Assembly (NCBI RefSeq): GCF_029227855.1
Contig: NZ_CP074356.1
DNA length: 64,000 bases
Source: Escherichia coli
GTDB lineage: Bacteria > Pseudomonadota > Gammaproteobacteria > Enterobacterales > Enterobacteriaceae
Direction: 5' to 3' (one strand)
Positions 2,566 through 40,936 of this stretch are shown here, piece after piece (within the stretch, counting starts at the first letter, position 1; the number at the start of each line of letters is the position of its first letter). Position numbers and translations under genes: made by a program. A model generated the notes under the pieces. That model worked only from the letters and a program-made list of their open reading frames with translations, ran no database searches and had not been told where the DNA came from.

Positions 2566-5500
2566 TTACCTGTTTAGCGTAGCGCGAATAATCGGCCCAA
2601 TTTTTTCAAACGCCCCTGGAGAGATAATATCCACATGCGCACAATCCTGACGATAGATATCCAGCTCCGCAATCCACGGCGACCAGGCGCGTTCGGGATT
2701 CATACCTTCCTGAAGCGTGCGTTCAGCAACAAACAGCGTCGCTTTACCGTCAAACGGTACACTATGAGCAGTCGTCAGCAGGCGCACAGCATCAGCGTAG
2801 TTGCCTTCAATGGTGGTAAACAACTCCGTTGAAGTACTTCCCTGCTGTGCCGCCAGGAAGGCCTCGCGCTCGCGGTTAATCTCCGCCAGCACTTCCGGGT
2901 CCAGGCCATTAGCCTCTTTTTCCTGCCAGTTTTGCGTTTCTGGCGGCCAGGTATCCAGCAAGCCAAAAAATGCCACCTGTTCGCCACGGGCACGCAGCCG
3001 CGCCGCAATACCCTGCGCCAGCGTACCGCCCAGCGAATAACCCAGCAGGTAATAAGGGCCGTGCGGTTGATGCTCAAGTAACGTTGCCAGATGCGCTTCG
3101 CAGACTTCATCCAGATTTGCCGCGGTCTGCATGGGGCCATTGGGGCGCGGCGACTGAATGCCGATAATCGACCATTGTGGATCGAGATAACGCGAGAGCA
3201 CGCTGAACTGCCAGGCAAAACCGGACGCAGGATGGAAACAAAACAGCGTCGGGCCATTACCTTCACGCAACGGCAGAATGGTTTCGAATCCCATGCGCCG
3301 GGAGCTGTCTTCTTCACCATCAATAATCGTTGCCAGTTTGGCGACAGTTGACGCGACCATCACCTGCCCCGGCGTCACCTGGCGGGTAAACTGCCGACTT
3401 AACTGCGCAGCCAGTTTCATTGCCAGTAGCGAATGACCGCCAAGCGCGAAGAAATCAGCATCGGCATCCTGCACGTCACAACCCAGCAACGACGAGAATG
3501 CCGCGGCGATAATCGTTTCACTGCCCGCTTTCGGCGCACGCCCCGGCGCTTGTGCCTTCAGTTCAGGCAACGGTAAGGCTTTGCGATCCAGCTTGCCGTT
3601 GGCGCTAAGCGGCAACTGCGGAAGTTGCAGCAGAACCACGGGCACCATATGCGGTGGCAATGTTTCGCGCAACTGCGCCTGCAATGCAGTGGTATCCAAC
3701 GGCAGGCCTGATTGCGACACCAGATACCCAACCAACTGACGCGCATCGCCTCCCGTTGCGGCAGCCTGGTTAATAACGCAGGCGTGGGTCACGGCCTGTT
3801 CAACGTCCGGCAGCGCCTGCATCACGCGGTCGATTTCGCCCAGTTCGATACGCTGCCCGCGAATTTTTAGCTGATCGTCACTGCGCCCGAGGTACTCCAC
3901 CGCGCCGTTATCCAGCCAGCGGGCAACGTCTCCGGTACGGTACATCCGTTCACCTGGGGCAAAAGGATCGGCAATAAAGCGGCTGGCGGTCAGATCGGGG
4001 CGTCCGAGATAGCCCTGCGCCAGTTGTATGCCAGTGAGATAGAGATCACCCGCCACACCTGGCGGCACCGGATGCATCATCGCATCAAGAATACGCAGGC
4101 CCGTATTCCACACCGGATAACCAATCGGCACACTACTGCCGCGCACCTGTGCCAGTTCCTCGCCAAAAGCCGGATACCAGCTGACATCTACCGCCGCTTC
4201 CGTCGGGCCATATAGATTATGCAACGGCACGCTGGTTAACTGTTGCCATTCGCGGCATAAATCAGCGGGTAAGGCCTCACCACTACAGAAAACCTGTTTC
4301 AACGTCGCGCAATTCTGGCGAGCGGTTTGCGGCGTCAGCGATGCAACAAATGCCGCCAGCATCGACGGCACAAAGTGCGTAGTCGTTACGCCATATTCGG
4401 CAAAGAATTGCTGCATAGCGAGCGGGTCGCGGTGCGCTTCCGGTTCAGCCATCACCAGTTTAGCCCCGGCAATAAACGGCCAGAAAAACTCCCACACCGA
4501 GACATCAAAACTGCACGGCGTTTTTTGGGCAACGACATCTTCGCCTGTAAGCGGGTAGTGGTTTTGCATCCAAAGCAGGCGGTTAACGATAGCCGTCTGC
4601 CCGACCATTACCCCTTTCGGCCTGCCGGTGGAGCCAGAGGTAAAGATGATATAAGCCGTGTGGTGCGGTTGTGAAAGTTTCAGCGGCGCACTGCCCTGCG
4701 GTGTAAGCGGGGCGTTATAGCAAAGGCTGGTTAAATCTGGAACATCGGCAAAGCGCGGCAGTTGATCGTCGGTGGTGATTAACAGCGACGGACGCGCATC
4801 TTCCAGCATCATTTTCAGGCGATCGTCCGGATAGCCGGTATCCAGCGGTAACCAGGCCGCACCAGCCTCAACAATTGCATGTAGCGCCAGAGTCAAAAAG
4901 ACCGAGCGCGGTAGCGCCACCGCCACGCTGTCGCCTGGTTTAACGCCGCGCTCACGCAGCAGATTCGCCAGCGCCACCACCTGCTCGCGCATTTCCCGAT
5001 AGCTAAACTGGTAACTCGCATCAACCAGCGCCGGAGCATGCGGTGTTTTTGCCGCTTGTTCTGCCACCAGCGCGCTCAGCGTGGTTTCTGGAATCTCAAC
5101 CTGAGTGGCGTTGATCTGCGCCAGCTGCACATATTCACCTGGCAGCATAATATCGACATCGCCGCACAACAGCGCCGGATCCGCGGCGAACTGGGCAATC
5201 AGCATTTTCAGGCGTTCAGCATGCTGGATTAACGTTGGCTCATCGTAACGCTGTTTATTGGCGAGGATCTCAATACTCAAATCACCGTGTTCATCCGGGA
5301 ACAGGGCCAGTTCAAGGTCATTAACCGGACCGGTTGCCAGGGTATGGGTTTGCGTCTGAACACCAGGAATATCCAGTTGGTAATCAAATACCTTGATATT
5401 GAGTACCGGACCGAACAGCGGTTCCTCTCCTGCCGCTCGCCCGCTGTCACGGACAATTTGTTCGGCATCGTAACGTTGATAACGACGCATTTTTTTCAGT

Positions 5501-6447
5501 TGTGCTGCCAGTCGGGTTGCCAGTTCCGGCAGCGTTTCTTGTGCCGCAATGTGAATCCCCAACGGCAAAACGTTGAGCACGGGTCCGGTAGCCGTCAGCG
5601 CCGCCGAGCCCAGTCGACGCATAAAGATAAATCCGGCGGCGTAGTCCATGCGATTGCACAATCGCCCCAGCCACAAGGCTGCCAACGCAAGTGCTAAATC
5701 GGTACGCTGCACACCTGAAAGTTGCGTAGCCAGCTGGCGGAATTCCCCGTCGGTAAACTCCAGTTTCAGGCGCAGAATATCTGCCGAGACGCTGCGCCCC
5801 GGTAAAGGTGCCGGAGAAAGTGACGCGGGCGGCGGCAGTTGACGACGCTGTTCCGTCCAGAATGCCGCATCACGCTGCCAGGCTTCGCTTTCGCGGTATT
5901 GCTGGTACTCTTCCACGACATCAGCGAAAGGCGTAAACGGCGAAGCAGGCGTTGGTTCGCCACGCAGCCATGCGCAGTAAATATTGGCGATCTGGCGGGT
6001 AATGGCCGGGAAACTGAAGCCATCGACCAGCAAATGGTGATAACGCTGATACCAGTACCAGCGGTTATCTGCCACCTGAATGAGCTGATGAAAGACCAGC
6101 GGTTTGCCGCTGTCGGCACGTAGATTTTGCTGTAAATCCGCCTGCATTAATGCCCGCGCAGTACCGTGCGGATCAATGTTGGTTCGCAGGTCGATAATTT
6201 CTGGCAGTTCGAACGTCAGCGCATCATCGACCCACTGCCAGACTTCGCCGTTATCTTCCGTAAAACGCATCCGCAGCGTATCTGCTTGCGCTATTCCGGC
6301 AACCACCGCGCGGGCCAGTAGTGGCGCATCAACCTCTCCGGTTAACTCAACGTAATGCGCCACGCTCCAGGCGGAGGGTAAATCCGACAGTTTTTCTGCC
6401 ATCCAGATGCCGGGCTGTGCGGCGACCAAAGGTAAATGCTGGCTCAT
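2566..6447 (-). CDS. entF: Enterobactin nonribosomal peptide synthetase EntF (C-A-PCP-TE)
   Basis: 1293-aa ORF; adenylation motifs (FTSGSTGRPKG), PCP serine (GGHSLLAMK), thioesterase GYSLGG; matches remembered EntF length and N-terminus MSQHLPLVAAQPGIW. Confidence 0.96.
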   Translation of the reverse strand: MSQHLPLVAAQPGIWMAEKLSDLPSAWSVAHYVELTGEVDAPLLARAVVAGIAQADTLRMRFTEDNGEVWQWVDDALTFELPEIIDLRTNIDPHGTARALMQADLQQNLRADSGKPLVFHQLIQVADNRWYWYQRYHHLLVDGFSFPAITRQIANIYCAWLRGEPTPASPFTPFADVVEEYQQYRESEAWQRDAAFWTEQRRQLPPPASLSPAPLPGRSVSADILRLKLEFTDGEFRQLATQLSGVQRTDLALALAALWLGRLCNRMDYAAGFIFMRRLGSAALTATGPVLNVLPLGIHIAAQETLPELATRLAAQLKKMRRYQRYDAEQIVRDSGRAAGEEPLFGPVLNIKVFDYQLDIPGVQTQTHTLATGPVNDLELALFPDEHGDLSIEILANKQRYDEPTLIQHAERLKMLIAQFAADPALLCGDVDIMLPGEYVQLAQINATQVEIPETTLSALVAEQAAKTPHAPALVDASYQFSYREMREQVVALANLLRERGVKPGDSVAVALPRSVFLTLALHAIVEAGAAWLPLDTGYPDDRLKMMLEDARPSLLITTDDQLPRFADVPDLTSLCYNAPLTPQGSAPLKLSQPHHTAYIIFTSGSTGRPKGVMVGQTAIVNRLLWMQNHYPLTGEDVVAQKTPCSFDVSVWEFFWPFIAGAKLVMAEPEAHRDPLAMQQFFAEYGVTTTHFVPSMLAAFVASLTPQTARQNCATLKQVFCSGEALPADLCREWQQLTSVPLHNLYGPTEAAVDVSWYPAFGEELAQVRGSSVPIGYPVWNTGLRILDAMMHPVPPGVAGDLYLTGIQLAQGYLGRPDLTASRFIADPFAPGERMYRTGDVARWLDNGAVEYLGRSDDQLKIRGQRIELGEIDRVMQALPDVEQAVTHACVINQAAATGGDARQLVGYLVSQSGLPLDTTALQAQLRETLPPHMVPVVLLQLPQLPLSANGKLDRKALPLPELKAQAPGRAPKAGSETIIAAAFSSLLGCDVQDADADFFALGGHSLLAMKLAAQLSRQFTRQVTPGQVMVASTVAKLATIIDGEEDSSRRMGFETILPLREGNGPTLFCFHPASGFAWQFSVLSRYLDPQWSIIGIQSPRPNGPMQTAANLDEVCEAHLATLLEHQPHGPYYLLGYSLGGTLAQGIAARLRARGEQVAFFGLLDTWPPETQNWQEKEANGLDPEVLAEINREREAFLAAQQGSTSTELFTTIEGNYADAVRLLTTAHSVPFDGKATLFVAERTLQEGMNPERAWSPWIAELDIYRQDCAHVDIISPGAFEKIGPIIRATLNR

Positions 6448-6662
6448 TGTGCCTCCTGCAACTGGGTGAAATTCGCCGGTGTCAGAGTACGCCAGTGGGC
6501 TTCAAGCCACTGCTGGCAGGACGCCTGTGACTGCGGCTGACACACAACGACCCAGCCTGCCGGTAAGGCGCATTGTTGCGGCCACAGACTGAATTGCCCC
6601 TGCGCATTGCGCAAAATGTTAAACGCTCCCTGCGGATCATCGAAGGGATTACTGAATGCCAT
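6444..6662 (-). CDS. ybdZ: MbtH-like protein YbdZ
   Basis: 72-aa product MAFSNPFDDPQGAF...SLWPQ...; ATG at 6660-6662 (the ORF track begins two codons upstream at a TTG); 4-bp overlap with the entF start. Confidence 0.88.
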   Translation of the reverse strand: MAFSNPFDDPQGAFNILRNAQGQFSLWPQQCALPAGWVVVCQPQSQASCQQWLEAHWRTLTPANFTQLQEAQ

Positions 6663-6664
6663 AT

Positions 6665-7867
6665 TCAACTCCTGTCATGGAAAAGTGGTTGCCAGAGGTC
6701 GATTAGCCCCTGCATCAAGCCACCGCGCCAACAAAGCGCATCATGTCCGCCGTCAACCTGACGCCAGAAAATGGATTCTTTTATGGGGTGTAATTGCGCA
6801 TACAGCGCCTGATTGGCCCGCATGATCATCGGCTCGCGAATACCCGCTTCCAGCATAATGCGCAGACCTTCGGCGCTAACTTCACCAGCTTTAAGTTGCT
6901 CAAGTAAAACACCTTCTTGCTGCCCGCCCCGATGAGGCCACCAGTACGATCCTGACTGGCTTAATACACAGCCAAAGCGTTCAGGCCAGTGCAGTCCGGC
7001 ATACAGCGCGGAAAGTCCACCAAAACTCTGCCCGGCGACCACGGTGCGATCGGCGCGATCGCTAAAAGGGGCAATAGCTTTCACCAGGGGTAATAACTCT
7101 TGCTGTACTGCCAGCCAGAAATCCGCATTACACGGCAGTTCGTGGGCGCGGTGCGTGGTGTCAATAGCGTCGATCAACACATACACGGCGGGAGGAAGTT
7201 GCTGACGATGGGTCAACGAAGTCAGCACAGGCCAGACAGGCATACTCTGCGCCCAAAATTCGCCATCGAGCAAAACTGCCAGCGGGCGTTCTCCTGCTGT
7301 TGCATCGCCGGTGGTAAAAATCCATACACGGCGTGAATTTTTCAACCGCTCACTTTTCCAGATAATTTCTTTGGCAGGCGTTTCTGGCGCTTGCGGACAA
7401 TCCCATCCCGGTTGTAGGGGCGCTTGCGGCATTTCGAGTGCAGAAACAGCGTGCCCTCGCCCGCCTTTCCAGCTTTGTGGATTCAGCGGATCGGCTATCG
7501 CCTGGGGCAATAGTTTTCGCCAGCCTTCACGTAATTCGAGGCGATCGGGGGATGGTGCAGAAAAAATGTCATCGCGTTCGGTGGGAATAAAACAGTAGCT
7601 GCCGCGCCAGTTGGCATTAAGTTGTGTCGTCCACTGCCAGACGTTGGTACCTGCAATTCGCTGCATCGACTGGGGCTGGCTGTTCTGATGGTGATCGGTC
7701 ACACCAGTGATGTAGACCCATACGCGCTTTATCGTCGAGTATTCTTCAGAACCTTGGGGATCACGCCACCAGAAAGTGACCTCAAACATTTCGTCATTCA
7801 GACGCTGCCATTCCGGGCCATGTTTCGACTGCCACCAGCTCTCACTTCCTACTTTTAACGCCGTCAC
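6665..7867 (-). CDS. fes: Enterochelin esterase Fes
   Basis: 400-aa ORF MTALKVGSESWWQSKHGPEWQRL... with esterase GQSFGG motif; the first codon appears to be GTG. Confidence 0.93.
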   Translation of the reverse strand: MTALKVGSESWWQSKHGPEWQRLNDEMFEVTFWWRDPQGSEEYSTIKRVWVYITGVTDHHQNSQPQSMQRIAGTNVWQWTTQLNANWRGSYCFIPTERDDIFSAPSPDRLELREGWRKLLPQAIADPLNPQSWKGGRGHAVSALEMPQAPLQPGWDCPQAPETPAKEIIWKSERLKNSRRVWIFTTGDATAGERPLAVLLDGEFWAQSMPVWPVLTSLTHRQQLPPAVYVLIDAIDTTHRAHELPCNADFWLAVQQELLPLVKAIAPFSDRADRTVVAGQSFGGLSALYAGLHWPERFGCVLSQSGSYWWPHRGGQQEGVLLEQLKAGEVSAEGLRIMLEAGIREPMIMRANQALYAQLHPIKESIFWRQVDGGHDALCWRGGLMQGLIDLWQPLFHDRS

Positions 7868-7916
7868 ACCATAACCCCATGTTTACTGTGAAATTTTTCA
7901 TTGATTGCAGAAATAT

Positions 7917-7939
7917 ATTGATAATATTATTGATAACTA
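7917..7939. promoter_or_regulatory. Fur box-like site in the fes-fepA divergent promoter region
   Basis: attgataatattattgataacta contains GATAAT-type hexamer repeats resembling the Fur consensus; located between divergent iron-regulated genes. Confidence 0.55.
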
Positions 7940-8109
7940 TTTGCATTTGCAATAGCGTAATGGCGCGCCGTGGGAAGCGCGGACATTAATTAACCAACTG
8001 CACTGCGTGTCTTTCAGGATCAAAGGTTTTCGCGGTAGCGGGATGCGTCGTGTTGATGACGACCATGCCCGACAGTTGCAATTCGTGGCAAAAATGCAGG
8101 AATAAAACA

Positions 8110-10350
8110 ATGAACAAGAAGATTCATTCCCTGGCCTTGTTGGTCAATCTGGGGATTTATGGGGTAGCACAGGCACAAGAGCCAACCGATACTCCTGTTT
8201 CACATGACGATACCATTGTCGTTACCGCCGCCGAGCAGAACTTGCAGGCACCTGGCGTTTCGACCATCACCGCAGATGAAATCCGCAAAAACCCGGTTGC
8301 CCGCGATGTGTCGGAGATCATCCGTACCATGCCAGGCGTTAACCTGACCGGTAACTCCACCAGTGGTCAGCGTGGGAATAACCGACAGATTGATATTCGC
8401 GGCATGGGTCCGGAAAACACGCTGATTTTGATTGACGGCAAGCCGGTAAGCAGCCGTAACTCGGTGCGTCAGGGCTGGCGTGGCGAGCGCGATACCCGTG
8501 GTGATACCTCCTGGGTGCCACCTGAAATGATTGAACGTATTGAAGTTCTGCGTGGTCCGGCAGCTGCGCGTTATGGCAACGGCGCGGCGGGCGGCGTGGT
8601 TAACATCATTACCAAAAAAGGCAGTGGTGAGTGGCACGGCTCGTGGGACGCATATTTCAATGCGCCAGAACATAAAGAGGAAGGTGCCACCAAACGCACT
8701 AACTTTAGCCTCACCGGTCCGCTGGGCGACGAATTCAGCTTCCGCTTGTATGGCAACCTCGACAAAACTCAGGCTGACGCGTGGGATATCAACCAGGGCC
8801 ATCAGTCCGCGCGTGCCGGAACGTATGCCACGACGTTACCAGCCGGGCGCGAAGGGGTGATCAATAAAGATATTAACGGCGTGGTGCGCTGGGACTTCGC
8901 ACCATTACAATCGCTGGAACTGGAAGCAGGTTACAGCCGCCAGGGTAACCTGTATGCGGGCGATACCCAGAACACCAACTCTGACTCCTATACCCGCTCG
9001 AAATATGGCGATGAAACCAACCGTCTGTATCGCCAGAACTACTCGCTGACCTGGAACGGCGGCTGGGATAACGGCGTGACCACCAGCAACTGGGTGCAGT
9101 ACGAACACACCCGTAACTCGCGTATTCCGGAAGGTCTGGCGGGCGGTACCGAAGGGAAATTTAACGAAAAAGCGACACAGGATTTCGTCGATATCGATCT
9201 CGATGACGTGATGCTGCACAGCGAAGTTAACCTGCCGATTGATTTCCTCGTTAACCAGACGCTGACGCTGGGTACGGAGTGGAATCAGCAGCGGATGAAG
9301 GACTTGAGTTCCAACACCCAGGCGCTCACCGGGACGAATACCGGCGGCGCTATTGATGGCGTGAGTGCCACCGACCGTAGCCCGTATTCAAAAGCAGAAA
9401 TTTTCTCGCTGTTTGCCGAAAACAATATGGAGCTGACTGACAGCACCATCGTAACGCCGGGGCTGCGTTTCGATCATCACAGCATTGTTGGCAATAACTG
9501 GAGTCCGGCTCTAAACATATCGCAAGGTTTAGGCGATGACTTCACGCTGAAAATGGGCATTGCCCGTGCTTATAAAGCGCCGAGTCTGTACCAGACTAAC
9601 CCAAACTACATTCTCTACAGTAAAGGTCAGGGCTGCTATGCCAGCGCGGGCGGCTGCTATCTGCAAGGTAATGATGACCTGAAAGCGGAAACCAGCATCA
9701 ACAAAGAGATTGGTCTGGAGTTCAAACGCGACGGCTGGCTGGCGGGTGTGACCTGGTTCCGTAACGATTATCGCAATAAGATTGAAGCGGGCTATGTGGC
9801 TGTAGGGCAAAACGCAGTCGGCACCGATCTCTATCAGTGGGATAACGTACCGAAAGCGGTGGTTGAAGGTCTGGAAGGATCGTTAAACGTACCGGTTAGC
9901 GAAACGGTGATGTGGACCAATAACATCACTTATATGCTGAAGAGTGAAAACAAAACCACGGGCGACCGTTTGTCGATCATCCCGGAGTATACGTTGAACT
10001 CAACGCTGAGCTGGCAGGCACGGGAAGATTTGTCGATGCAAACAACCTTCACCTGGTACGGCAAGCAGCAGCCGAAGAAGTACAACTATAAAGGTCAGCC
10101 AGCGGTTGGACCGGAAACCAAAGAAATCAGTCCGTACAGCATTGTGGGTCTGAGCGCGACCTGGGATGTGACGAAGAATGTCAGTCTGACCGGCGGCGTG
10201 GACAACCTGTTCGACAAACGTTTGTGGCGTGCAGGTAATGCCCAGACCACGGGCGATCTGGCAGGAGCCAACTATATCGCCGGTGCCGGGGCGTATACCT
10301 ATAACGAGCCGGGACGTACGTGGTATATGAGCATTAATACTCACTTCTGA
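8110..10350 (+). CDS. fepA: TonB-dependent ferric enterobactin outer-membrane receptor FepA
   Basis: 746-aa product MNKKIHSLALLVNLGIYGVAQA..., TonB box DTIVVTA, C-terminal ...YMSINTHF; the ORF-track start at 8050 is an upstream extension. Confidence 0.96.
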   Translation: MNKKIHSLALLVNLGIYGVAQAQEPTDTPVSHDDTIVVTAAEQNLQAPGVSTITADEIRKNPVARDVSEIIRTMPGVNLTGNSTSGQRGNNRQIDIRGMGPENTLILIDGKPVSSRNSVRQGWRGERDTRGDTSWVPPEMIERIEVLRGPAAARYGNGAAGGVVNIITKKGSGEWHGSWDAYFNAPEHKEEGATKRTNFSLTGPLGDEFSFRLYGNLDKTQADAWDINQGHQSARAGTYATTLPAGREGVINKDINGVVRWDFAPLQSLELEAGYSRQGNLYAGDTQNTNSDSYTRSKYGDETNRLYRQNYSLTWNGGWDNGVTTSNWVQYEHTRNSRIPEGLAGGTEGKFNEKATQDFVDIDLDDVMLHSEVNLPIDFLVNQTLTLGTEWNQQRMKDLSSNTQALTGTNTGGAIDGVSATDRSPYSKAEIFSLFAENNMELTDSTIVTPGLRFDHHSIVGNNWSPALNISQGLGDDFTLKMGIARAYKAPSLYQTNPNYILYSKGQGCYASAGGCYLQGNDDLKAETSINKEIGLEFKRDGWLAGVTWFRNDYRNKIEAGYVAVGQNAVGTDLYQWDNVPKAVVEGLEGSLNVPVSETVMWTNNITYMLKSENKTTGDRLSIIPEYTLNSTLSWQAREDLSMQTTFTWYGKQQPKKYNYKGQPAVGPETKEISPYSIVGLSATWDVTKNVSLTGGVDNLFDKRLWRAGNAQTTGDLAGANYIAGAGAYTYNEPGRTWYMSINTHF

Positions 10351-30144: not shown

Positions 30145-33100
30145 ATGAGTGAAGGACCAGGCGGGCCACAGGGAGCGACCGCAGGCGGTACGCTGGCAAT
30201 GCGAATGCTGTCACAGCAGGCGATGGTCGCCAGCCAGATGAAACGGGCAGCCAACGACAAAGCCATTGCACAGATGCTGGCATCAAAAAAGTCCGGCCCC
30301 CCCGCCGCCAGGCTGGGCGATGAAATTCAGCACAAGAGTTTTTTGGGGGCGCTGGCAGGGGCCGTGCTGGGGGCGATAGTGACCATCGCAGAAGGTTGCC
30401 TGATTATGGCCGCCTGTGCCACCGGCCCTTATGCGCTGGTTCTGGTGCCTGCGCTGATGTATGCCAGCTATAAGGCGAGTGATTATGTGGAGGAGAAACA
30501 GAACCAGCTTGAATCATGGATAAACAGCTTTTGTGACACGGACGGCGCCATCAATACCGGTTCTGAAAATGTAAACATTAACGGAAAGCCCGCTGCCAGG
30601 GCCGCCGTCACCCTTCCCCCTCCTCCCCCACCTGGAGCAATACCTGAAATCCCACAGGGGGAACCCTCATGGGGTGATATTGCCACTGACCTGCTTGAAT
30701 CGGCAGCGGAAAAAGCAGTACCACTGGCGAAGGCCTGGGGGAACGCTGTTATCACCCTGACGGACAGCAATGCCGGTTTTATGGATCGCGTCAGCGCCGG
30801 CGCATCGCTTCTGTTTCCCGCCGGTCCGGTATTAATGGAGTTTGCCACCATGGTGGGCGGGCGTGGCGAAATCAAAAAAGATGTGGATTTCCCGGAAGCC
30901 GGTGAGGACACGGCGCTCTGCGACAAGGAGAACAAACCACCGAGGATAGCCCAGGGCAGCAGCAACGTCTTTATCAACAATCAGCCCGCCGCGCGCAAGG
31001 GCGACAAACTGGAGTGCAGCGCGGCAATCGTGGAAGGTTCGCCGGACGTCTTTATTGGCGGTGAACAGGTGACCTATCTGGATATCCAGCCAGAGTTCCC
31101 GCCGTGGCAGAGAATGATCCTGGGGGGAATAACGATAGCCAGCTATCTTCTGCCGCCAGCGGGACTGCTGGGAAAACTGAAGAATCTGGCGAGACTCGGC
31201 AAACTGGGGAACCTGCTGGGGAAAAGCGGGAAGCTGCTGGGGGCAAAGCTCGGCGCGTTGCTGGGAAAAACAGATAAGTCGTTAAAAAGTATTGCCAATA
31301 AAGTCATCAGATGGGTAACAGATCCTGTCGATCCGGTAACCGGCGCGTACTGCGACGAACGTACCGACTTTACGCTGGGCCAGACCCTCCCCCTCTCCTT
31401 CACCCGTTTCCACAGTTCTGTACTGCCGCTGCATGGCCTGACCGGCGTGGGCTGGAGCGACTCCTGGAGCGAATACGCCTGGGTGCGTGAACAGGGAAAC
31501 CGGGTGGATATCATCAGCCAGGGAGCCACGCTGAACTTCGCCTTCGACGGTGACAGTGATACGGCGGTTAACCCGTATCACGCCCAGTACATTCTGCGCC
31601 GCCGCGATGATTATCTGGAGCTGTTCGACAGGGATGCACTGAGCAGCCGCTTCTTTTATGACGCCTTTCCGGGAATGCGTCTGCGCCACCCGGTGACTGA
31701 CGATACCAGCGATGACCGCCTGGCACACAGCCCCAATGACCGGATGTACATGCTGGGCGGGATGAGCGACACCGCCAGCAACCGCATCACGTTTGAGCGC
31801 GACAGCCAGTACCGGATCACAGGTGTCAGTCACACCGACGGGATCCGGCTTAAACTGACGTACCACGCCAGCGGCTACCTGAAAGCCATTCACCGCACGG
31901 ATAACGGCATACAGACGCTGGCGACCTACGAACAGGATGCGCGGGGGCGGCTGACAGAAGCGGATGCGCGGCTGGACTACCACCTGTTTTATGAGTACGA
32001 CGCTGCGGACCGGATCATCCGCTGGTCCGATAACGACCAGACGTGGAGCCGTTTCACCTACGATGAACAGGGCCGGTGCGTGAATGTCACCGGGGCGGAG
32101 GGCTATTACAACGCCACGCTGGACTATGGTGACGGCTGCACCACCGTGACGGACGGCAAGGGCATTCACCGTTATTACTATGATCCTGACGGCAATATTC
32201 TGCGGGAAGCAGCGCCGGACGGCAGCACCACCACGTATGAATGGGATGAATTCCATCACCTGCTGGCCCGTCACTCCCCTGCCGGGCGGGTGGAGAAATT
32301 TGAATACAACGCCGCACACGGTCAGTTAAGCCGTTACACGGCGGCAGACGGCGCGGAGTGGCAGTACCGCTATGATGAGCGCGGCCTGCTCAGCAACATC
32401 ACCGACCCTGCCGGGCAGACGTGGACACAGCAGTGTGATGAACGCGGCCTGCCGGTAAGTCTGGTGTCGCCACAGGGCGAAGAGACCCGGCTGGCATACA
32501 CCGCTCAGGGGCTGCTGTCGGGAATATTCCGCCAGGATGAACGGCGTCTGGGCATAGAGTACGACCACCACAACCGGCCGGAAACACTCACCGACGTGAT
32601 GGGCCGTGAACACCACACCGAATACAGCGGTCACGACCTGCCGGTGAAGATGCGCGGCCCCGGCGGTCAGTCAGTGCGGTTGCAGTGGCAGCAGCACCAT
32701 AAACTGAGTGGCCTTGAGCGCACTGGCACCGGCGCGGAAGGGTTCAGCTATGACCGCCACGGCAACCTGCTGGCCTGGACGGACGGCAATGGTGTTGTCT
32801 GGACAATGGAGTACGGCCCGTTCGATTTGCCGGTGGCGCGAACGGACGGTGAAGGCCACCGCTGGCAGTACCGCTATGATAAAGACACGCTGCAACTGAC
32901 AGAAGTCATTAACCCGCAGGGTGAGTCATATCTTTATGTTCTGGATAACTGCGGCCGGGTGACGGAAGAGCATGACTGGGGCGGCGTGGTCTGGCGTTAC
33001 CGCTATGACGCCGATGGCCTGTGTACCGCCAGGGTCAACGGCCTGGAGGAAACCATCCTCTACAGCCGGGACGACGCAGGCCGCCTGGCAGAAGTCATCA

Positions 33101-34974
33101 CGCCGGAAGGCAAAACGCAGTATGCGTATGACAAATCCGGCAGGCTGACGGGTATCTTCAGCCCGGACGGCACATCACAGCGCACCGGCTATGACGAACG
33201 CGGGCGGGTGAATGTCACCACTCAGGGCCGACGGGCCATTGAATACCACTACCCCGATGAACACACCGTCATCCGCTGTATCCTGCCACCGGAAGATGAA
33301 CGCGACAGACACCCCGGTGAATCCCTGCTGAAAACCACGTACCGCTACAACGCAGCCGGAGAACTGGCAGAGGTCATCCTGCCGGAGGATGAGACGCTGA
33401 CGTTCAGCCGTGATGAGGCAGGACGTGAAGTGCTCCGGCACAGTAACCGGGGTTTTGCCTGTGAGCAGGGCTGGAATGCAGCCGGTCAGCTTACCAGCCA
33501 GCGCGCCGGACTTTTCCCGGCAGAAGCCACATGGGGCGGGCTGCTCCCCTCACTGGTACGGGAGTACCGTTACGACAGCGCGGGCAATGTGTCGGCTGTC
33601 ACCAGCCGGGAAGATTACGGACGGGAAACTCGCCGGGAGTACCGGCTGGACCGGAACGGCCAGGTCACGGCGGTGACAGCCTCAGGCACCGGGCTGGGCT
33701 ATGGCGAAGGCGATGAGTCCTATGGCTATGACAGTTGTGGCTACCTGAAGGCGCAGTCTGCGGGCAGGCACCGGATAAGTGAAGAGACTGAGCGGTATGC
33801 CGGAGGCCACCGGCTGAAACAGGCCGGAAACACGCAGTATGACTATGACGCCGCAGGCCGGATGGTCAGCCGCACCAGACACCGTAACGGCTATCGCCCG
33901 GAAACAGAGCGGTTCCGGTGGGACAGCCGGGACCAGCTGACCGGGTATTGCAGCGCACAGGGTGAACAGTGGGAATACCGCCACGACGCCAGCGGCAGAC
34001 GGACGGAAAAACGCTGCGACCGGAAGAAAATCCGCTTCACGTACCTGTGGGACGGCGACAGTATTGCGGAAATCCGGGAATACCGCGATGATAAACTGTA
34101 CAGCGTAAGGCACCTGGTGTTTAACGGCTTTGAGCTGATAAGCCAGCAGTTTAGCCGGGTACGGCAGCCGCACCCGTCCGTGGCCCCGCAGTGGGTGACG
34201 CGGACGAATCATGCGGTGAGCGATCTGACGGGCCGTCCGCTGATGCTCTTTAACAGTGAAGGTAAAACCGTCTGGCGACCGGGACAGACCAGCCTGTGGG
34301 GGCTGGCACTCAGCCTGCCCGCGGACACCGGCTACCCGGACCCGCGCGGGGAACTGGACGCGGAAGCCGACCCCGGCCTGCTGTATGCAGGACAGTGGCA
34401 GGATGCGGAATCCGGGCTGTGCTATAACCGGTTCCGGTATTACGAGCCGGAAACAGGGATGTACCTGGTGAGTGATCCGCTGGGGTTGCTGGGGGGTGAG
34501 CAGACTTACCGGTATGTGCCGAATCCGTGTGGGTATGTTGATCCTTTGGGATTAGCAACATGTCCCATAATCAGACAACGGGTGCTGGCTAACCTTGAAG
34601 CCAGTCGGGCAGCAAGGGCTGCATCTAATTTTGGTAAGAAAAATATCTATGATTTTATCAAGGCAACTCAATCTGCTATCCCTGGCACCTCTATCCCAAA
34701 ATCTTTTGAGATTATAACTGCTAATGGTACTTTCTGGGTACACCCAAATGCTACAAAACATATGGCTGAATATTTGACTCGGAACGGTCTCTCACATTCA
34801 ACTTCTGTAGAGAGCCAAATAATGTTAACAAGTTTTCACGAAGCTGTAAGTTTGGCTAGTGCTCAAGGTATAAAGTATGAAGAAATGATGAATGTTGGCG
34901 GCTGGGAACTAGTATTTAGTCAAGCTAAATCTGACTCGGCTTTATCAGTTATTAAACATGCTCTTTATAAATGA
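30145..34974 (+). CDS. prePAAR/PAAR-domain Rhs polymorphic toxin (T6SS effector) with variable C-terminal toxin domain
   Basis: 1609 aa; prePAAR motif AARLGDEIQH near the N-terminus with hydrophobic helices; PAAR-like segment (GDKLECSAAIVEGSPDVFIGGE); many YD/RHS repeats; PxxxxDPxGL core-end motif (NPCGYVDPLGL) followed by about 150 aa of divergent C-terminus. Confidence 0.9.
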   Translation: MSEGPGGPQGATAGGTLAMRMLSQQAMVASQMKRAANDKAIAQMLASKKSGPPAARLGDEIQHKSFLGALAGAVLGAIVTIAEGCLIMAACATGPYALVLVPALMYASYKASDYVEEKQNQLESWINSFCDTDGAINTGSENVNINGKPAARAAVTLPPPPPPGAIPEIPQGEPSWGDIATDLLESAAEKAVPLAKAWGNAVITLTDSNAGFMDRVSAGASLLFPAGPVLMEFATMVGGRGEIKKDVDFPEAGEDTALCDKENKPPRIAQGSSNVFINNQPAARKGDKLECSAAIVEGSPDVFIGGEQVTYLDIQPEFPPWQRMILGGITIASYLLPPAGLLGKLKNLARLGKLGNLLGKSGKLLGAKLGALLGKTDKSLKSIANKVIRWVTDPVDPVTGAYCDERTDFTLGQTLPLSFTRFHSSVLPLHGLTGVGWSDSWSEYAWVREQGNRVDIISQGATLNFAFDGDSDTAVNPYHAQYILRRRDDYLELFDRDALSSRFFYDAFPGMRLRHPVTDDTSDDRLAHSPNDRMYMLGGMSDTASNRITFERDSQYRITGVSHTDGIRLKLTYHASGYLKAIHRTDNGIQTLATYEQDARGRLTEADARLDYHLFYEYDAADRIIRWSDNDQTWSRFTYDEQGRCVNVTGAEGYYNATLDYGDGCTTVTDGKGIHRYYYDPDGNILREAAPDGSTTTYEWDEFHHLLARHSPAGRVEKFEYNAAHGQLSRYTAADGAEWQYRYDERGLLSNITDPAGQTWTQQCDERGLPVSLVSPQGEETRLAYTAQGLLSGIFRQDERRLGIEYDHHNRPETLTDVMGREHHTEYSGHDLPVKMRGPGGQSVRLQWQQHHKLSGLERTGTGAEGFSYDRHGNLLAWTDGNGVVWTMEYGPFDLPVARTDGEGHRWQYRYDKDTLQLTEVINPQGESYLYVLDNCGRVTEEHDWGGVVWRYRYDADGLCTARVNGLEETILYSRDDAGRLAEVITPEGKTQYAYDKSGRLTGIFSPDGTSQRTGYDERGRVNVTTQGRRAIEYHYPDEHTVIRCILPPEDERDRHPGESLLKTTYRYNAAGELAEVILPEDETLTFSRDEAGREVLRHSNRGFACEQGWNAAGQLTSQRAGLFPAEATWGGLLPSLVREYRYDSAGNVSAVTSREDYGRETRREYRLDRNGQVTAVTASGTGLGYGEGDESYGYDSCGYLKAQSAGRHRISEETERYAGGHRLKQAGNTQYDYDAAGRMVSRTRHRNGYRPETERFRWDSRDQLTGYCSAQGEQWEYRHDASGRRTEKRCDRKKIRFTYLWDGDSIAEIREYRDDKLYSVRHLVFNGFELISQQFSRVRQPHPSVAPQWVTRTNHAVSDLTGRPLMLFNSEGKTVWRPGQTSLWGLALSLPADTGYPDPRGELDAEADPGLLYAGQWQDAESGLCYNRFRYYEPETGMYLVSDPLGLLGGEQTYRYVPNPCGYVDPLGLATCPIIRQRVLANLEASRAARAASNFGKKNIYDFIKATQSAIPGTSIPKSFEIITANGTFWVHPNATKHMAEYLTRNGLSHSTSVESQIMLTSFHEAVSLASAQGIKYEEMMNVGGWELVFSQAKSDSALSVIKHALYK

Positions 34975-35504
34975 CGATTATGCTTACATTAGAAAATGAA
35001 ACAAACTACAAAGATGTTGTTGTTAATATAGATGAATTTGTACCTTTTGATATAACTTTTGGAAAGGGGAGCGAACAGTGTTTGTACTGGAGAGGCGGCA
35101 ATGGTAAAAGTTCTTTGGTTGAAGTTGGGTTAAATATGTACAGCGGAGAAGTAAGTAACATCACACTAGCAAATATCGATTCAGGTGAAATTAACATTAC
35201 AGATGAGATGTTAGCCAACAACCTTCCTGAAATACAAGGGTCTGTTATATTTCAGACAAGCGAGTGGCTTAATAAAGACATTTCCGAATACTCAAACAGA
35301 TTTATTGATGATTTTGATTGCAATATCAAGTTAATAATTGGTAGTAATTACATTAAATTATTATTTAAAAAAGCAACAAATCCCATTTGTTATATCATTA
35401 ATAGGAATATAAGATTTGGTTTTTCTTTGAGTAGGGAACTTTCGACATTGGAAATATTAGACCTCAATCAAGAAAAATTAGATATTCTAAAGTTATTTAA
35501 ATAG
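34971..35504 (+). CDS. Putative cognate immunity protein for the Rhs C-terminal toxin
   Basis: 177-aa ORF whose ATG overlaps the rhs stop (ATGA); markedly AT-rich; position typical of rhsI genes. Confidence 0.7.
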   Translation: MTIMLTLENETNYKDVVVNIDEFVPFDITFGKGSEQCLYWRGGNGKSSLVEVGLNMYSGEVSNITLANIDSGEINITDEMLANNLPEIQGSVIFQTSEWLNKDISEYSNRFIDDFDCNIKLIIGSNYIKLLFKKATNPICYIINRNIRFGFSLSRELSTLEILDLNQEKLDILKLFK

Positions 35505-35983: not shown

Positions 35984-36427
35984 ATGGAGTTTAGTATGAA
36001 AATCGAAGCTAATTCCCTTACTCATCCCTATGACTACAACGCCTCACTGAACAATTATTTACATTATTTTGAGAATTTCTCTCGTAATGACTGGAATAAA
36101 GATTCATGTGGAGGATATTTTACTTTTAGAGATGATGACAGAGAGTGTGTTTTGTTTTTTGTGAATTATGGTGATAATTTTTCATTGCGCTATGATTGTA
36201 CACAAAGTTCTGATGGAATAGTGTCATGCTGGTATAGTAACCATGAAGATGATAAAATGAATATCATCGTCGATGCTGATACAGAACAATTTATCCCTTT
36301 AGGTTCTTGCTTACCTCCTGATATTACTTTATCAGTAATAAAAGATTTTTTCAAAAATCCTTTAGAGAAATCAAAAAAAGTAAAATGGATGAATGCAGAT
36401 GACATTGACTGGTCATCTGTGTATTAA
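35984..36427 (+). CDS. Hypothetical protein, possible orphan immunity gene
   Basis: 147-aa ORF in AT-rich DNA downstream of the toxin/immunity pair; no recognisable motif. Confidence 0.4.
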   Translation: MEFSMKIEANSLTHPYDYNASLNNYLHYFENFSRNDWNKDSCGGYFTFRDDDRECVLFFVNYGDNFSLRYDCTQSSDGIVSCWYSNHEDDKMNIIVDADTEQFIPLGSCLPPDITLSVIKDFFKNPLEKSKKVKWMNADDIDWSSVY

Positions 36428-37318
36428 AGTTGGATTGGATAATTATCTGTTTCAAAAATCATTAAATTTAGAACCTATCTGTTCAACAGAGCTGCCTTGA
36501 ACAGCAGGTTCTTTTATGATGTCCAGGAGCGAATATGCCTGTGATGTCTGGCACTCAGCATCTGACTGACCTGGACTACTGATCCTACTCACACAGGGAG
36601 CTAGACCTGGAAGCAACCTACTGTAAGCAGTGCAGTAGCAGCCCACCTCACATCAGTCCTTGCAAGGTGTGGGCCTTTGTGATCTTGCTCTGTATTGCTG
36701 AGATCCTCAGGAAGGACTCGAAATTTAATCAGGAAGGCCGTTGCTAAAAATCAAAAAATAAATTCAAGAGCAATTTCTAAAACTTTTGAATCTACTGTAT
36801 CGGATGAGGTTTTCACTCCTTTCCAAAAGGTGAGTTTTCAAGCATTCAAGTTTCTGTTATGACCAAAACTTCACCATTTAACACTAATCCGAGTATTATG
36901 TTACCATGAAGAAAAAAGATATTAGATTTGCAATATCCATTAACTCCAACTCAAGTAAGATAGAATTAATGGAAAAATTAAAAACATAATCCCAGGGCTT
37001 ATTGAAATAACTCCCAGTGCATTAAGAGAAGAAAAAACATGGTAGTTATTGAAGATAATGATCTTTATGACTCTATAAAAGCAGAGGGAGTTGATGGATG
37101 GATGTATTATAAATTCATATTATCCATATTCCCATTAAAGGGAGTAGACACAACATTAGAATATCAACGGAAATTATCTTTTCTTTTCTTAAAGAAATTA
37201 AAAGATGCGGGTCTGTTAGGTGAACTTATATGCGAGGATGATTTTCATGACTGATGACCTCTACATATATCCTCAGTTCGTGGCTGGTATTACATGATCT
37301 GACAGGGAAAGATCGTAG

Positions 37319-37613
37319 CGAAATCAAAAAAGACGTGGATTTCCCGGAAGCCGGTGAAGACACGGCGCTCTGCGACAAGGAGACTAAACCGCCGAGGATA
37401 GCCCAGGGCAGCAGCAACGTTTTTATCAACAATCAGCCTGCCGCACGCCAGGGAGACAAACTGGAGTGCAGTGCGGCGATCGTGGAAGGTTCGCCGGACG
37501 TCTTTATTGGGGGTGAGCAGGTCACCTATCTGGATATCCAGCCGGAGTTCCCGCCGTGGCAGAGAATGATCCTGGGGGGAATAACGATAGCCAGCTATCT
37601 TCTGCCGCCAGCG
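37319..37613 (+). pseudogene. Duplicated fragment of the Rhs PAAR-domain region
   Basis: 295 bp nearly identical to 30867-31161 of the full-length rhs gene; encodes EIKKDVDFPEAGEDTALCDK...ITIASYLLPPA inside ORF 37254..37631; lacks the N-terminus and core. Confidence 0.85.
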
Positions 37614-37750
37614 CAGGGAAAGATCACGTAACGCTGCTTTTTTGTACTAAATAATTCGCACTAAATGTTCAATAATTGAGATATTCCTTATTACCTAAAT
37701 ACAGTTCCACCAAGATTACCTAAACCCAAATGAGGTAAAAGATAGTGGGT

Positions 37751-38141: not shown

Positions 38142-38840
38142 TTGAAGGTAACGTGGAGTGGTGGGCGGAGCAGCCTGCCCGCAGACACAGACTACCCGGA
38201 CCCGCGCGGGGAGCGGGACGCGGAAGCCGACCCCGGCCTGCTGTATGCAGGACAGTGGCAGGATGCGGAATCCGGACTGTGCTATAACCGGTTCCGGTAT
38301 TACGAGCCGGAAACCGGGATGTACCTGGTGAGTGATCCCCTGGGGTTGCTGGGGGGTGAGCAGACTTACCGGTATGTGCCTAATCCTAGTGGGTATGTTG
38401 ATCCTCTGGGATTAGCAACGTGTCCTATACTCAGACAGTGGGCGCTGACTAACCTTGAAGCCAGTCGGGCAGCAAGGGCTGCATCTAATTTTGGTAAGCC
38501 TCTGGTCCAGCGAAATAAAACGATTGGCGATAAAGTAAGGGATATGATTGCCAAAGAGAGGGGAACCACTCTAATTGAACAAAATTATAGAGTGACAGGA
38601 GGATTAAAGCGTATTGACGTTGTTGATGGAGTAACGGGTATAGAATCTAAAGTCGATCGAACAGGGTTAACAACCCGAGTACGGCAAGAGGTAGCGCGGG
38701 ATATTAAGATTTTGAGAAGTGAGCAACTTGATCAAATTGAATGGGTGTTTACAAGAAGTTCAACTACAGGGAAGATTGGGCCAACTAAACCACTTGAAGA
38801 TCTTTTAAATAAACATGGTATACCGATTATTTATCGATAA
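38142..38840 (+). CDS. Orphan Rhs C-terminal fragment: core end (DPxGL) plus alternative C-terminal toxin domain, candidate PD-(D/E)xK nuclease
   Basis: 38171-38498 nearly identical to 34311-34638 of the full rhs; the C-terminal domain diverges after ...AASNFGK; contains RIDVVDG...GIESK; the ORF begins at TTG and has no PAAR or core of its own. Confidence 0.7.
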   Translation: MKVTWSGGRSSLPADTDYPDPRGERDAEADPGLLYAGQWQDAESGLCYNRFRYYEPETGMYLVSDPLGLLGGEQTYRYVPNPSGYVDPLGLATCPILRQWALTNLEASRAARAASNFGKPLVQRNKTIGDKVRDMIAKERGTTLIEQNYRVTGGLKRIDVVDGVTGIESKVDRTGLTTRVRQEVARDIKILRSEQLDQIEWVFTRSSTTGKIGPTKPLEDLLNKHGIPIIYR

Positions 38841-38851
38841 GGAGTGATAGT

Positions 38852-39409
38852 GTGAAACTCAAACCGATTGGTGACTTTTTAAACAAAAATGGGTTTATAA
38901 AAAATGGTAACAATGATTTTTATAAAGTTCATGATAAGTTTGTAAATTGTATAAATTTTCAAAAAAAGAGTACAGGTGATATTTTTTTTATAAACACAGG
39001 TGTTCATCCTGTGTTCGAAAATTTTTGCAATGAACCACCGAAAAAAGAAATAGATTGTTACATCCGTAACCGTGTGTGTGATGGACTAAGTATATCTTTG
39101 CTGCATTCTTTTGAAGGTAGTGAGTTTGTTATCAGTGAGATAAAAAACAAAGCGTTTTGTTTTTTTGAATACTTTGATTCATTGAATAAAATATTCGATG
39201 CTATTCGTGTTGTAGATATTGAAGAGAGAAATATTTGCGATGAGCTAAGTGGTGTAAGCAGCGTAAGATTAGCTTTGATGTGTATGAACTACCAGTATGA
39301 GAAAAAAAAATTTAGCCTTGTTTCTGATTTTGCGAACTATGGTCTTGCTATATCTAGAGGCCCGGTACCGAAAAAAGCATTTAAGGATATGATAAAAATA
39401 ACAGAGTGA
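38852..39409 (+). CDS. Putative immunity protein for the orphan Rhs C-terminal toxin
   Basis: 185-aa AT-rich ORF with GTG start 11 bp after the orphan toxin stop and GGAG upstream. Confidence 0.6.
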   Translation: MKLKPIGDFLNKNGFIKNGNNDFYKVHDKFVNCINFQKKSTGDIFFINTGVHPVFENFCNEPPKKEIDCYIRNRVCDGLSISLLHSFEGSEFVISEIKNKAFCFFEYFDSLNKIFDAIRVVDIEERNICDELSGVSSVRLALMCMNYQYEKKKFSLVSDFANYGLAISRGPVPKKAFKDMIKITE

Positions 39410-39434: not shown

Positions 39435-39646
39435 GCCTGTGTACCGCGAAGATTAACGGCCGGGAGGAAACTATTCTCTACAACCGGGACGCCACAGGCC
39501 GCCTGGCAGAAGTCATCACGCCGGAAGGCAAAACGCAGTATGCGTATGACAAATCCGGCAGGCTGACGGGTATCTTCAGCCCGGACGACACATCACAGCG
39601 CACCGGCTATGAAGAACGCGGGCGGGTGAATGTCACCACTCAGGGC
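39435..39646 (+). pseudogene. Internal Rhs core fragment
   Basis: About 210 bp at roughly 90% identity to 33018-33228 of the full-length rhs; truncated at both ends, abutting the ISAs1 left end. Confidence 0.8.
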
Positions 39647-40936
39647 AGGGAAAGATCATCCAAAGTACACTTTTTGTACTAAATAATTCGCATTTTATGT
39701 TTAAAAATGGAGATATTCCTCATTACCTAAAGCTGTTTTTTATTGCTTATACATGATCAAATACTCCTTACATAATTAAGGAGAACAAAATGGAACTTAA
39801 AAAATTGATGGAACATATTTCTATTATCCCCGATTACAGACAAGCCTGGAAAGTGGAACATAAATTATCGGATATTCTGCTGTTGACTATTTGTGCCGTT
39901 ATTTCGGGTGCAGAAGGCTGGGAAGATATAGAGGATTTTGGGGAAACACATCTCGATTTTTTGAAGCAATATGGTGATTTTGATAATGGTATTCCTGTTC
40001 ACGATACCATCGCCAGAGTTATATCCTGTATCAGTCCTTCAAAATTTCACGAGTGTTTTATTAACTGGATGCGAGATTGCCATACTTCAGATGATAAAGA
40101 CGTCATCGCAATTGATGGAAAAACACTCCGGCATTCTTATGACAAGAGTCGCCGCAAGGGAGCGATTCATGTCATTAGTGCGTTCTCAACAATGCACAGT
40201 CTGGTCATCGGACAGATCAGGACGGATGAGAAATCCAATGAAATTACAGCTATCCCTGAACTTCTTAACATGCTGGATATTAAAGGAAAAATCATCACAA
40301 CTGATGCGATGGGTTGCCAGAAAGATATTGCAGAGAAGATACAAAAACAGGGCGGTGATTATTTATTCGCTGTAAAAGGAAACCAGGGGCGGCTAAATAA
40401 AGCCTTCGAGGAAAAATTTCCGCTGAAAGAATTAAATAATCCAGAGCATGACAGTTACGCCATTAGTGAAAAGAGTCACGGCAGAGAAGAAATCCGTCTT
40501 CATATTGTTTGCGATGTCCCTGATGAACTTATTGATTTCACGTTTGAATGGAAAGGACTGAAGAAATTATGCGTGGCAGTCTCTTTTCGGTCAATAATAG
40601 CAGAACAAAAGAAAGAGCCAGAAATGACGGTCAGATATTATATCAGTTCTGCTGATTTAACCGCAGAGAAGTTCGCCACAGCAATCCGAAACCACTGGCG
40701 CGTGGAGAATAAGCTGCACTGGCGTCTGGACGTGGTAATGAATGAAGACGACTGCAAAATAAGAAGAGGAAACGCCGCAGAATTATTTTCAGGGATACGG
40801 CACATCGCTATTAATATTTTAACGAATGATAAGGTATTCAAGGCAGGGTTAAGACGTAAGATGCGAAAAGCAGCCATGGACAGAAACTATCTCGCGTCAG
40901 TCCTTGCGGGGAGCGGGCTTTCGTAATCTTGCCCTG
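39646..40936 (+). mobile_element. ISAs1-family insertion sequence (H-repeat element), about 1.29 kb
   Basis: Imperfect terminal inverted repeats CAGGGAAAGATCA (39646-39658) and TAATCTTGCCCTG (40924-40936); single transposase ORF; inserted in rhs-derived sequence. Confidence 0.75.
39790..40926 (+). CDS. ISAs1-family transposase (H-repeat-associated protein, YhhI/YdcC-like)
   Basis: 378-aa [55 protein letters not shown]...; the stop codon lies inside the right inverted repeat. Confidence 0.88.

Follow-up and report, generated by a model that had tools for sequence, protein, structure and literature searches.

An Escherichia coli Rhs effector gene with a C-terminal domain homologous to the tRNA nuclease CdiA-CT(EC869) and an adjoining candidate immunity gene

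The tRNA nuclease (tRNase) CdiA-CT of enterohaemorrhagic Escherichia coli EC869 was reportedly first described by Jones et al. in a 2017 PNAS article. PDB entry 7VMC is a complex of EF-Tu with this CdiA-CT and its immunity protein CdiI (Wang et al. 2022 NAR, PMC9071432). The EC869 enzyme acts on an EF-Tu:GTP:EF-Ts scaffold and cleaves tRNAs in the 3' acceptor strand, at positions 71/72, to give a 2',3'-cyclic phosphate; its substrates, with G73 as discriminator and weak pairing at 1-72, include tRNA-Gln and tRNA-Asn, and in vitro also tRNA-Trp and tRNA-fMet (PMC9071432). Toxicity is reduced by H216A, H281A and R271A and little affected by R263A and Y220A, and the authors write of H216 and H281 that they "might be involved in catalysis", while F218 and E259 of EF-Tu contact Y220, L221, Q235, M237 and Y284 of the toxin (PMC9071432). 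Here we describe a locus within 64,000 nucleotides of E. coli contig NZ_CP074356.1 (assembly GCF_029227855.1; hereafter the window) at which a 1609-residue Rhs protein is very probably a type VI secretion system (T6SS) effector carrying an exchangeable tRNase domain of the CdiA-CT(EC869) type, followed by its cognate immunity gene. Also relevant are the class I prePAAR Rhs effectors of the T6SS with Eag chaperones, for example RhsA of Pseudomonas protegens. Photorhabdus Rhs1 has also been described (PMC8636562).

A phmmer search of PDB sequences aligned the tail of the Rhs protein with 7VMC chain B, named 'tRNA nuclease CdiA', at E=8.1e-41. Chain residues 182-306 are covered, up to the last residue of both proteins, with 61% identity over 124 aligned columns; the matched part comprises the last ~110-125 residues of Rhs. 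BLASTP likewise gave 57% identity over 138 aa (E=7e-48) to the cdiA product of an O157:H7 strain. From 49 family sequences, AlphaFold2 produced a model of residues 1499-1609 with a mean pLDDT (predicted local distance difference test) of 92.4 and a topology of three strands, two helices and three strands, matching the EC869-type fold of two three-stranded sheets around helix alpha-3. When this model was compared with the PDB by Foldseek, 7vmc_B was the sole significant match, with a TM-score of 0.94 and an rmsd (root-mean-square deviation) of 1.3 Å over 111 columns; the next matches, to ParE-type BECR toxins, were weak.

Both EC869 histidines whose mutation lowers toxicity have identical counterparts in Rhs (H216 is H1539 and H281 is H1605), as do the EF-Tu contact residues Y220, L221, Q235, M237 and Y284, which are Y1543, L1544, Q1558, M1560 and Y1608, respectively. 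Two arginines of EC869 are changed. R263, the mutation of which had little effect, is substituted by G1586; R271, the mutation of which lowers toxicity, faces A1594 in a plain pairwise alignment and K1595, a conservative change, in a family alignment of 153 sequences. In that alignment the H216 and Q235 columns are invariant, the H281 column holds His in 152/153 sequences, and the R271 column holds Arg in 123/153 and Lys in 17/153. The R263 column is variable, with Asn in 51/153, Gly in 44/153 and Arg in 25/153.

The 177-aa open reading frame (ORF) downstream of rhs is related to the partner of the EC869 toxin. A PDB sequence search matched it to 7VMC chain C, 'Contact-dependent inhibitor I', at E=3.4e-18, and it is 35% identical over 139 aa (E=4e-21) to CdiI of an O157:H7 strain. 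The ATG at 34971 overlaps the rhs TGA stop at 34972-34974 (aaATGAcg), and RefSeq begins the protein at another in-frame ATG, that at 34980 (WP_001370340.1, 174 aa); neither start is preceded by an obvious Shine-Dalgarno sequence. Scans of the ORF against Pfam-A and NCBIfam gave no match, and a word-indexed protein search retrieved only relatives in E. coli and E. fergusonii, all of them 'hypothetical'. A structure model from a 3-sequence alignment was unusable (pLDDT 38.7). In newer RefSeq assemblies WP_001370340.1 is named 'RNA-binding protein', and in older ones 'hypothetical protein'; because the homology is to CdiI of 7VMC, the 'RNA-binding protein' label is probably wrong and mis-propagated.

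The toxin and immunity genes are the end of a run of four co-oriented ORFs on the + strand, in the order vgrG, a 153-aa ORF, the 1609-aa rhs and the 177-aa ORF (Table 1), the usual arrangement for class I prePAAR Rhs effector islands. Pfam scans of the Rhs protein recovered prePAAR_I, PAAR_motif, DUF6531 and numerous RHS_repeat matches, and NCBIfam scans recovered YD_repeat (TIGR01643, E=1e-69), Rhs_assc_core (E=1.7e-17) and RHS_core. NCBIfam T6SS_PAAR_dom also matched (E=5e-11), its 42.5 bits falling under the curated cutoff of 124 for that model. A Kyte-Doolittle scan found a hydrophobic segment at about residues 64-105, C-terminal of the prePAAR motif. With a prePAAR motif, an N-terminal transmembrane segment, a PAAR domain, a YD/RHS shell and a PxxxxDPxGL motif all present, the protein qualifies by its sequence features as a class I prePAAR T6SS effector. 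The DcrB/DUF1795 family supplies Eag chaperones to prePAAR effectors, and the 153-aa protein, labelled 'DcrB-related protein' in RefSeq, would by analogy serve as chaperone for the prePAAR transmembrane region.

Table 1. Coordinates in the window of the rhs island genes and of the features of the Rhs protein
Feature	Position	Strand	Basis or remark
vgrG, T6SS spike protein, 633 aa	27735-29636	+	TIGR03361 VI_Rhs_Vgr E=4e-188; RefSeq T6SS tip protein VgrG
Putative Eag-type chaperone, DcrB/DUF1795 family, 153 aa	29664-30125	+	Pfam DcrB PF08786 E=1.7e-27, full model
prePAAR-PAAR-Rhs effector gene, intact, 1609 aa	30145-34974	+	Without internal stop
prePAAR motif AARLGDEIQH, residues 54-63	30304-30333	+	Regular-expression match; Pfam prePAAR_I E=1.5e-4
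PAAR domain, residues 267-310	30943-31074	+	Pfam PAAR_motif E=9.8e-10
Predicted Rhs C-terminal autoproteolysis region DPLGL-x17-DPLGL, residues 1444-1470	34474-34554	+	Motif positions
Linker, 28 residues, ATCPIIRQRVLANLEASRAARAASNFGK	34555-34638	+	Between DPLGL and structured toxin domain
Predicted EC869-type tRNase toxin domain, BECR fold, residues 1499-1609	34639-34971	+	7VMC_B homology, AlphaFold and Foldseek
Key toxin codons	H1539 34759-34761; K1595 34927-34929; H1605 34957-34959	+	Residue mapping to EC869
Candidate immunity gene rhsI, CdiI(EC869) homologue, 177 aa (ATGA start) or 174 aa (ATG at 34980)	34971-35504	+	7VMC_C homology

The island lies between cusS and nfrB on the E. coli chromosome, and no T6SS core genes are present within the window. 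All 4830 nt of the rhs ORF are identical to the copy in strain JNEC-KY178, the genome of which has a T6SS cluster (tssA/B/C/E/F/G/H/J/K/M, dotU, hcp and vgrG) ~400 kb from the cusS island. That cluster (NZ_AP045174.1 3975000-4024999, locus ~24600-50000) contains a second vgrG, a second Rhs gene of 1499 aa ('RHS element core protein') and a small downstream ORF, and it adjoins a Flag-2 flagellar cluster.

Two copies of DPLGL occur near the Rhs C-terminus, at residues 1444-1448 and 1466-1470, and the sequence around the second, PCGYVDPLGL (residues 1461-1470), conforms to the autoprotease motif PxxxxDPxGL. By analogy with the known Rhs aspartyl-protease motif, cleavage would occur and the toxin would begin after L1470, in a protein that ends ...YRYVPNPCGYVDPLGL/ATCPIIRQRVLANLEASRAARAASNFGKKNIYDFIKATQ...WVHPNATKHMAEY...HALYK (last residues IKHALYK). 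The 28-residue linker that follows lies outside the structured toxin domain; the 7VMC model begins at residue 175. The linker recurs as ATCPILRQWALTNLEASRAARAASNFGK in an orphan Rhs-CT module downstream, and a 94% DNA repeat (34311-34610 and 38171-38470) spans part of it. We considered whether the linker is a general trait of this rhs family and rejected this, as most alleles diverge at DPLGL; it is common only to the main rhs and the local orphan module.

Comparison with other E. coli alleles of this rhs revealed that DNA homology ends around the second DPLGL, mostly at window positions ~34526-34575, and that the payload beyond it is in other alleles a zincin-like metallopeptidase or a restriction-endonuclease-fold toxin. 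Because other alleles both lose homology at this point and carry other toxins beyond it, the toxin/immunity pair is exchanged as a cassette at DPLGL. Base composition changes at the same junction: GC content drops from 0.603 (Rhs core) to 0.512 (28-codon linker), 0.366 (111-codon toxin domain) and 0.305 (immunity ORF), compared to 0.51 for the whole window. These results bear out much of what a sequence-only reading of this DNA had proposed, namely a C-terminal Rhs toxin with an adjacent immunity gene in an exchanged cassette, an AT-rich downstream ORF set against a GC-rich Rhs core, and a start of that ORF on the rhs stop (ATGA). Its description of the motif NPCGYVDPLGL was also correct, whereas the tail beyond it is 139 residues long and not ~150.

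Of 5426 complete E. coli genomes, 135 (~2.5%) have the segment 34640-35504, comprising toxin and immunity gene, as a single chromosomal copy with >=99% identity. This recurrence, and the highly significant homologues of both proteins, place the feature beyond chance. A further 35 E. coli genomes contain a stretch ~70% identical in DNA to the toxin-coding part, in their case inside cdiA; among the records listed, these cdiA genes are annotated as 'contact-dependent inhibition effector tRNA nuclease' or 'VENN motif pre-toxin domain-containing protein'. An exhaustive search beyond E. coli yielded 615 cluster representatives with the toxin domain at E<=0.001. In the best 150 of these 615, the domain is always C-terminal, in proteins of 98 to 3382 residues. 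Simple motif checks and inspection of N-termini indicated VENN-type CdiA, Rhs/YD, apparently LXG-like and other carriers. Thus, the EC869-type toxin is a widespread polymorphic-toxin domain that Pfam and NCBIfam do not cover. Among the E. coli carriers, the rhs gene of strain AR_0067 (NZ_CP032261.1, locus 4666-9495) differs from the window copy at 146 of 4830 nt and is identical to it at the toxin/immunity end, a pattern pointing either to recombination inside the rhs core or to decay that occurred independently among the carriers.

From these features and the described behaviour of EC869, we propose how the effector might act. The Eag/DcrB chaperone would cover the prePAAR transmembrane segment, and the PAAR domain would seat Rhs on the VgrG spike encoded just upstream. 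The YD-repeat shell would house the toxin, autoproteolysis at DPLGL would release the 139-residue tail, and T6SS firing would place the ~110-residue toxin domain in the cytoplasm of the target cell. There, the domain would be expected to dock on EF-Tu domain II, in a scaffold that EF-Ts and GTP complete, and to cut the 3' acceptor strand of tRNAs with G73 and a weak 1-72 pair, the tRNA set being extrapolated from EC869, so that translation would halt. In the producing cell, the 174-177-aa immunity protein would bind the toxin and mask its active-site face.

Several observations weigh against this assignment. The nuclease activity of the Rhs toxin is predicted from homology, and the catalytic mechanism of the EC869 enzyme is itself incompletely defined (PMC9071432). 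Approximately 39% of the aligned residues are unlike EC869, and the tRNA set or cofactor dependence could differ. R263 is replaced by Gly, though R263A is mild in EC869 and the column is variable, and the near-invariant Pro of 'LPV' before the last strand (143/153 family sequences) is Ser in the Rhs toxin. A T6SS in the source genome is deduced from the identity of its rhs to that of JNEC-KY178, and rhs is decayed in some carriers, with an internal stop at codon 740 in AR_0067 and an IS1 insertion in strain 1579. Some of these points would fit a domain that shares fold and ancestry with EC869 and has diverged in function, using another tRNA set or cut site or no longer needing EF-Tu/EF-Ts. The 61% identity to EC869 falls short of near-identity, the changes of R263 to Gly, R271 to Lys and the strand Pro to Ser could matter, and related BECR CdiA toxins vary in cofactor need and substrate (PMC9071432, PMC9086364); CdiA-CT(EC3006) works without EF-Tu and EF-Ts, whereas its relative CdiA-CT(Kp342) needs both. 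However, Rhs keeps all five EF-Tu contacts and the two toxicity-linked histidines unchanged, the predicted backbone is nearly superposable (rmsd 1.3 Å), and the substituted positions are variable in the family or conservatively replaced, and we therefore regard a diverged function as unlikely.

The pseudogene in AR_0067 and the IS1-broken gene in strain 1579 could also point to a non-functional relic, passively carried in a clonal set of E. coli and neither expressed nor delivered, on an island strewn with rhs fragments and an ISAs1 element; the 135 copies, being >=99% identical, hold little information on selection. Such a relic is very improbable given that the window has an unbroken 4830-nt ORF with its conserved functional residues retained, intact genes for VgrG and the chaperone, and an equally intact immunity ORF whose overlap with the rhs stop is consistent with translational coupling, and that a full T6SS cluster is present in a genome with the identical rhs gene. 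Virtually no credence is left for a domain of no known toxin family with activity and target open, as the sequence-only reading had it. Scans of the toxin tail against Pfam-A and NCBIfam gave no match, a word-indexed protein search with it returned just 20 short fragments without names, and the older RefSeq label of the immunity ORF, which Pfam-A and NCBIfam also fail to match, is 'hypothetical protein'; the domain could not be placed from Pfam-type knowledge because neither library has a model for either protein. In contrast, the confident matches of the toxin to the well-characterised CdiA-CT(EC869) (61% identity, E=8e-41; TM 0.94 to 7vmc_B by Foldseek) and of the immunity protein to its partner CdiI (E=3e-18 to 7VMC_C), together with the 615 cluster representatives, refute that reading.

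If the locus is a T6SS-delivered Rhs effector with an EC869-type tRNase, a further proposal is that an EF-Tu/EF-Ts-activated acceptor-stem tRNase is here delivered by the T6SS rather than by CDI, with an immunity protein that possibly forms a group of its own and changed residues that may alter the tRNA set or cofactor need, a possibility that we hold with considerable doubt. Were it true, R263G, R271K and the Pro to Ser change in the last strand may shift the tRNA set or cofactor need away from that of EC869, and the immunity protein, at 35% identity, may define a separate immunity group. In addition, with the toxin arriving without the cytoplasm-entry domain of CDI, the locus would show the EF-Tu-dependent step to be a property of the nuclease domain instead of the entry route.

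The region downstream of the immunity gene contains further rhs-derived sequence. An orphan Rhs-CT module at 38142-38840 begins with a copy of the rhs 3' end (38171-38470, 94% identical to 34311-34610) that includes DPLGL and part of the linker, fused to a different C-terminal domain of ~113 aa with a PD-(D/E)xK-like 'IDVVD...ESK' string; PADLOC, Pfam and PDB searches with this module gave nothing significant. The 185-aa ORF that follows (38852-39409), DUF4304 in RefSeq, is probably the immunity gene of the orphan Rhs-CT. Two other rhs fragments, at 37314-37613 and 39435-39646, are each 94% identical to the main gene, one copying the PAAR region (30862-31161) and the other 33017-33228, and immediately after each comes a 91-nt AT-rich repeat, whose two copies (37609-37699 and 39641-39731) are 81% identical. 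These fragment/repeat pairs suggest repeated recombination or displacement events sharing a junction sequence. An ISAs1 transposase gene (39790-40926) lies after them. An AT-rich 147-aa ORF at 35984-36427 (WP_001522501.1, 'hypothetical'), ~480 bp beyond the immunity gene, had a weak match to Pfam Imm1 (E=0.15) and may be an orphan immunity gene left from an earlier toxin cassette. PADLOC found nothing on the small ORFs or the 185-aa ORF.

The value of this assignment is practical: it opens no new biology, its mechanism being that expected from a characterised homologue, and it improves annotation. The rhs gene of the cassette is labelled generic RHS and its immunity gene 'hypothetical protein' or 'RNA-binding protein', the 'hypothetical' labels being explained by the lack of a Pfam or NCBIfam model for the two; they can now be given testable functions, as a putative tRNA acceptor-stem nuclease of the EC869 type and the matching immunity protein. 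The locus clearly exemplifies a single toxin/immunity type that, within one species, is used with type V (CdiA) as well as type VI (Rhs) delivery. It also exposes a gap in the domain libraries, a toxin family of 615 cluster representatives without a Pfam or NCBIfam model. CdiA and Rhs have been known to share C-terminal toxins from Poole et al. 2011 (PMC3150448) onwards, and no Rhs- or T6SS-borne EC869-type tRNase was described in the literature that we searched, a limited search that is not proof of absence.

Of the known systems, CdiA-CT(EC869)/CdiI is the closest. Homology of the toxin extends along the entire domain (61% identity in 124 columns; rmsd 1.3 Å by prediction), its toxicity-linked histidines and EF-Tu contacts are those of EC869, the two immunity proteins are homologous, and in both loci the immunity gene abuts the toxin gene end. 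The carriers differ: here a PAAR-Rhs protein on the T6SS spike with a DPLGL boundary, in EC869 a type V CdiA filament with a VENN boundary, exported via CdiB. The N-terminal ~170 residues of CdiA-CT, the cytoplasm-entry domain among them, are absent here and their place is taken by the 28-residue linker, and R263 and R271 of EC869 are Gly and Lys. Because the immunity proteins are just 35% identical, cross-protection between RhsI and CdiI(EC869) would be unlikely. Unlike CDI systems, which are defined by a cdiB gene and a CdiA filament bearing FHA repeats, a two-partner-secretion domain and a VENN pre-toxin motif, the locus has PAAR, RHS repeats and DPLGL, and its neighbours are vgrG and a DcrB-family gene instead of cdiB; it is not a CDI system, although its toxin is like that of one.

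The toxins CdiA-CT(NC101) (PDB 5I4Q) and CdiA-CT(Kp342) (PDB 6CP9) share the BECR fold predicted for the Rhs toxin, and they cut particular tRNAs in the 3' acceptor region and are stimulated by EF-Tu, EF-Ts and GTP (PMC9071432, PMC5737660). They show no detectable sequence similarity to it, 7VMC being the sole significant PDB match by sequence or fold, and they differ from EC869 in tRNA set, in cut site (72/73 for NC101) and in docking to EF-Tu (PMC9071432). Finally, compared to class I prePAAR Rhs effectors, the locus has the same gene order of vgrG, eag (DcrB/DUF1795), prePAAR-PAAR-Rhs and immunity gene, and its Rhs protein has the same AARxxDxxxH motif and transmembrane segment, YD-repeat shell and PxxxxDPxGL motif; only the C-terminal payload differs.

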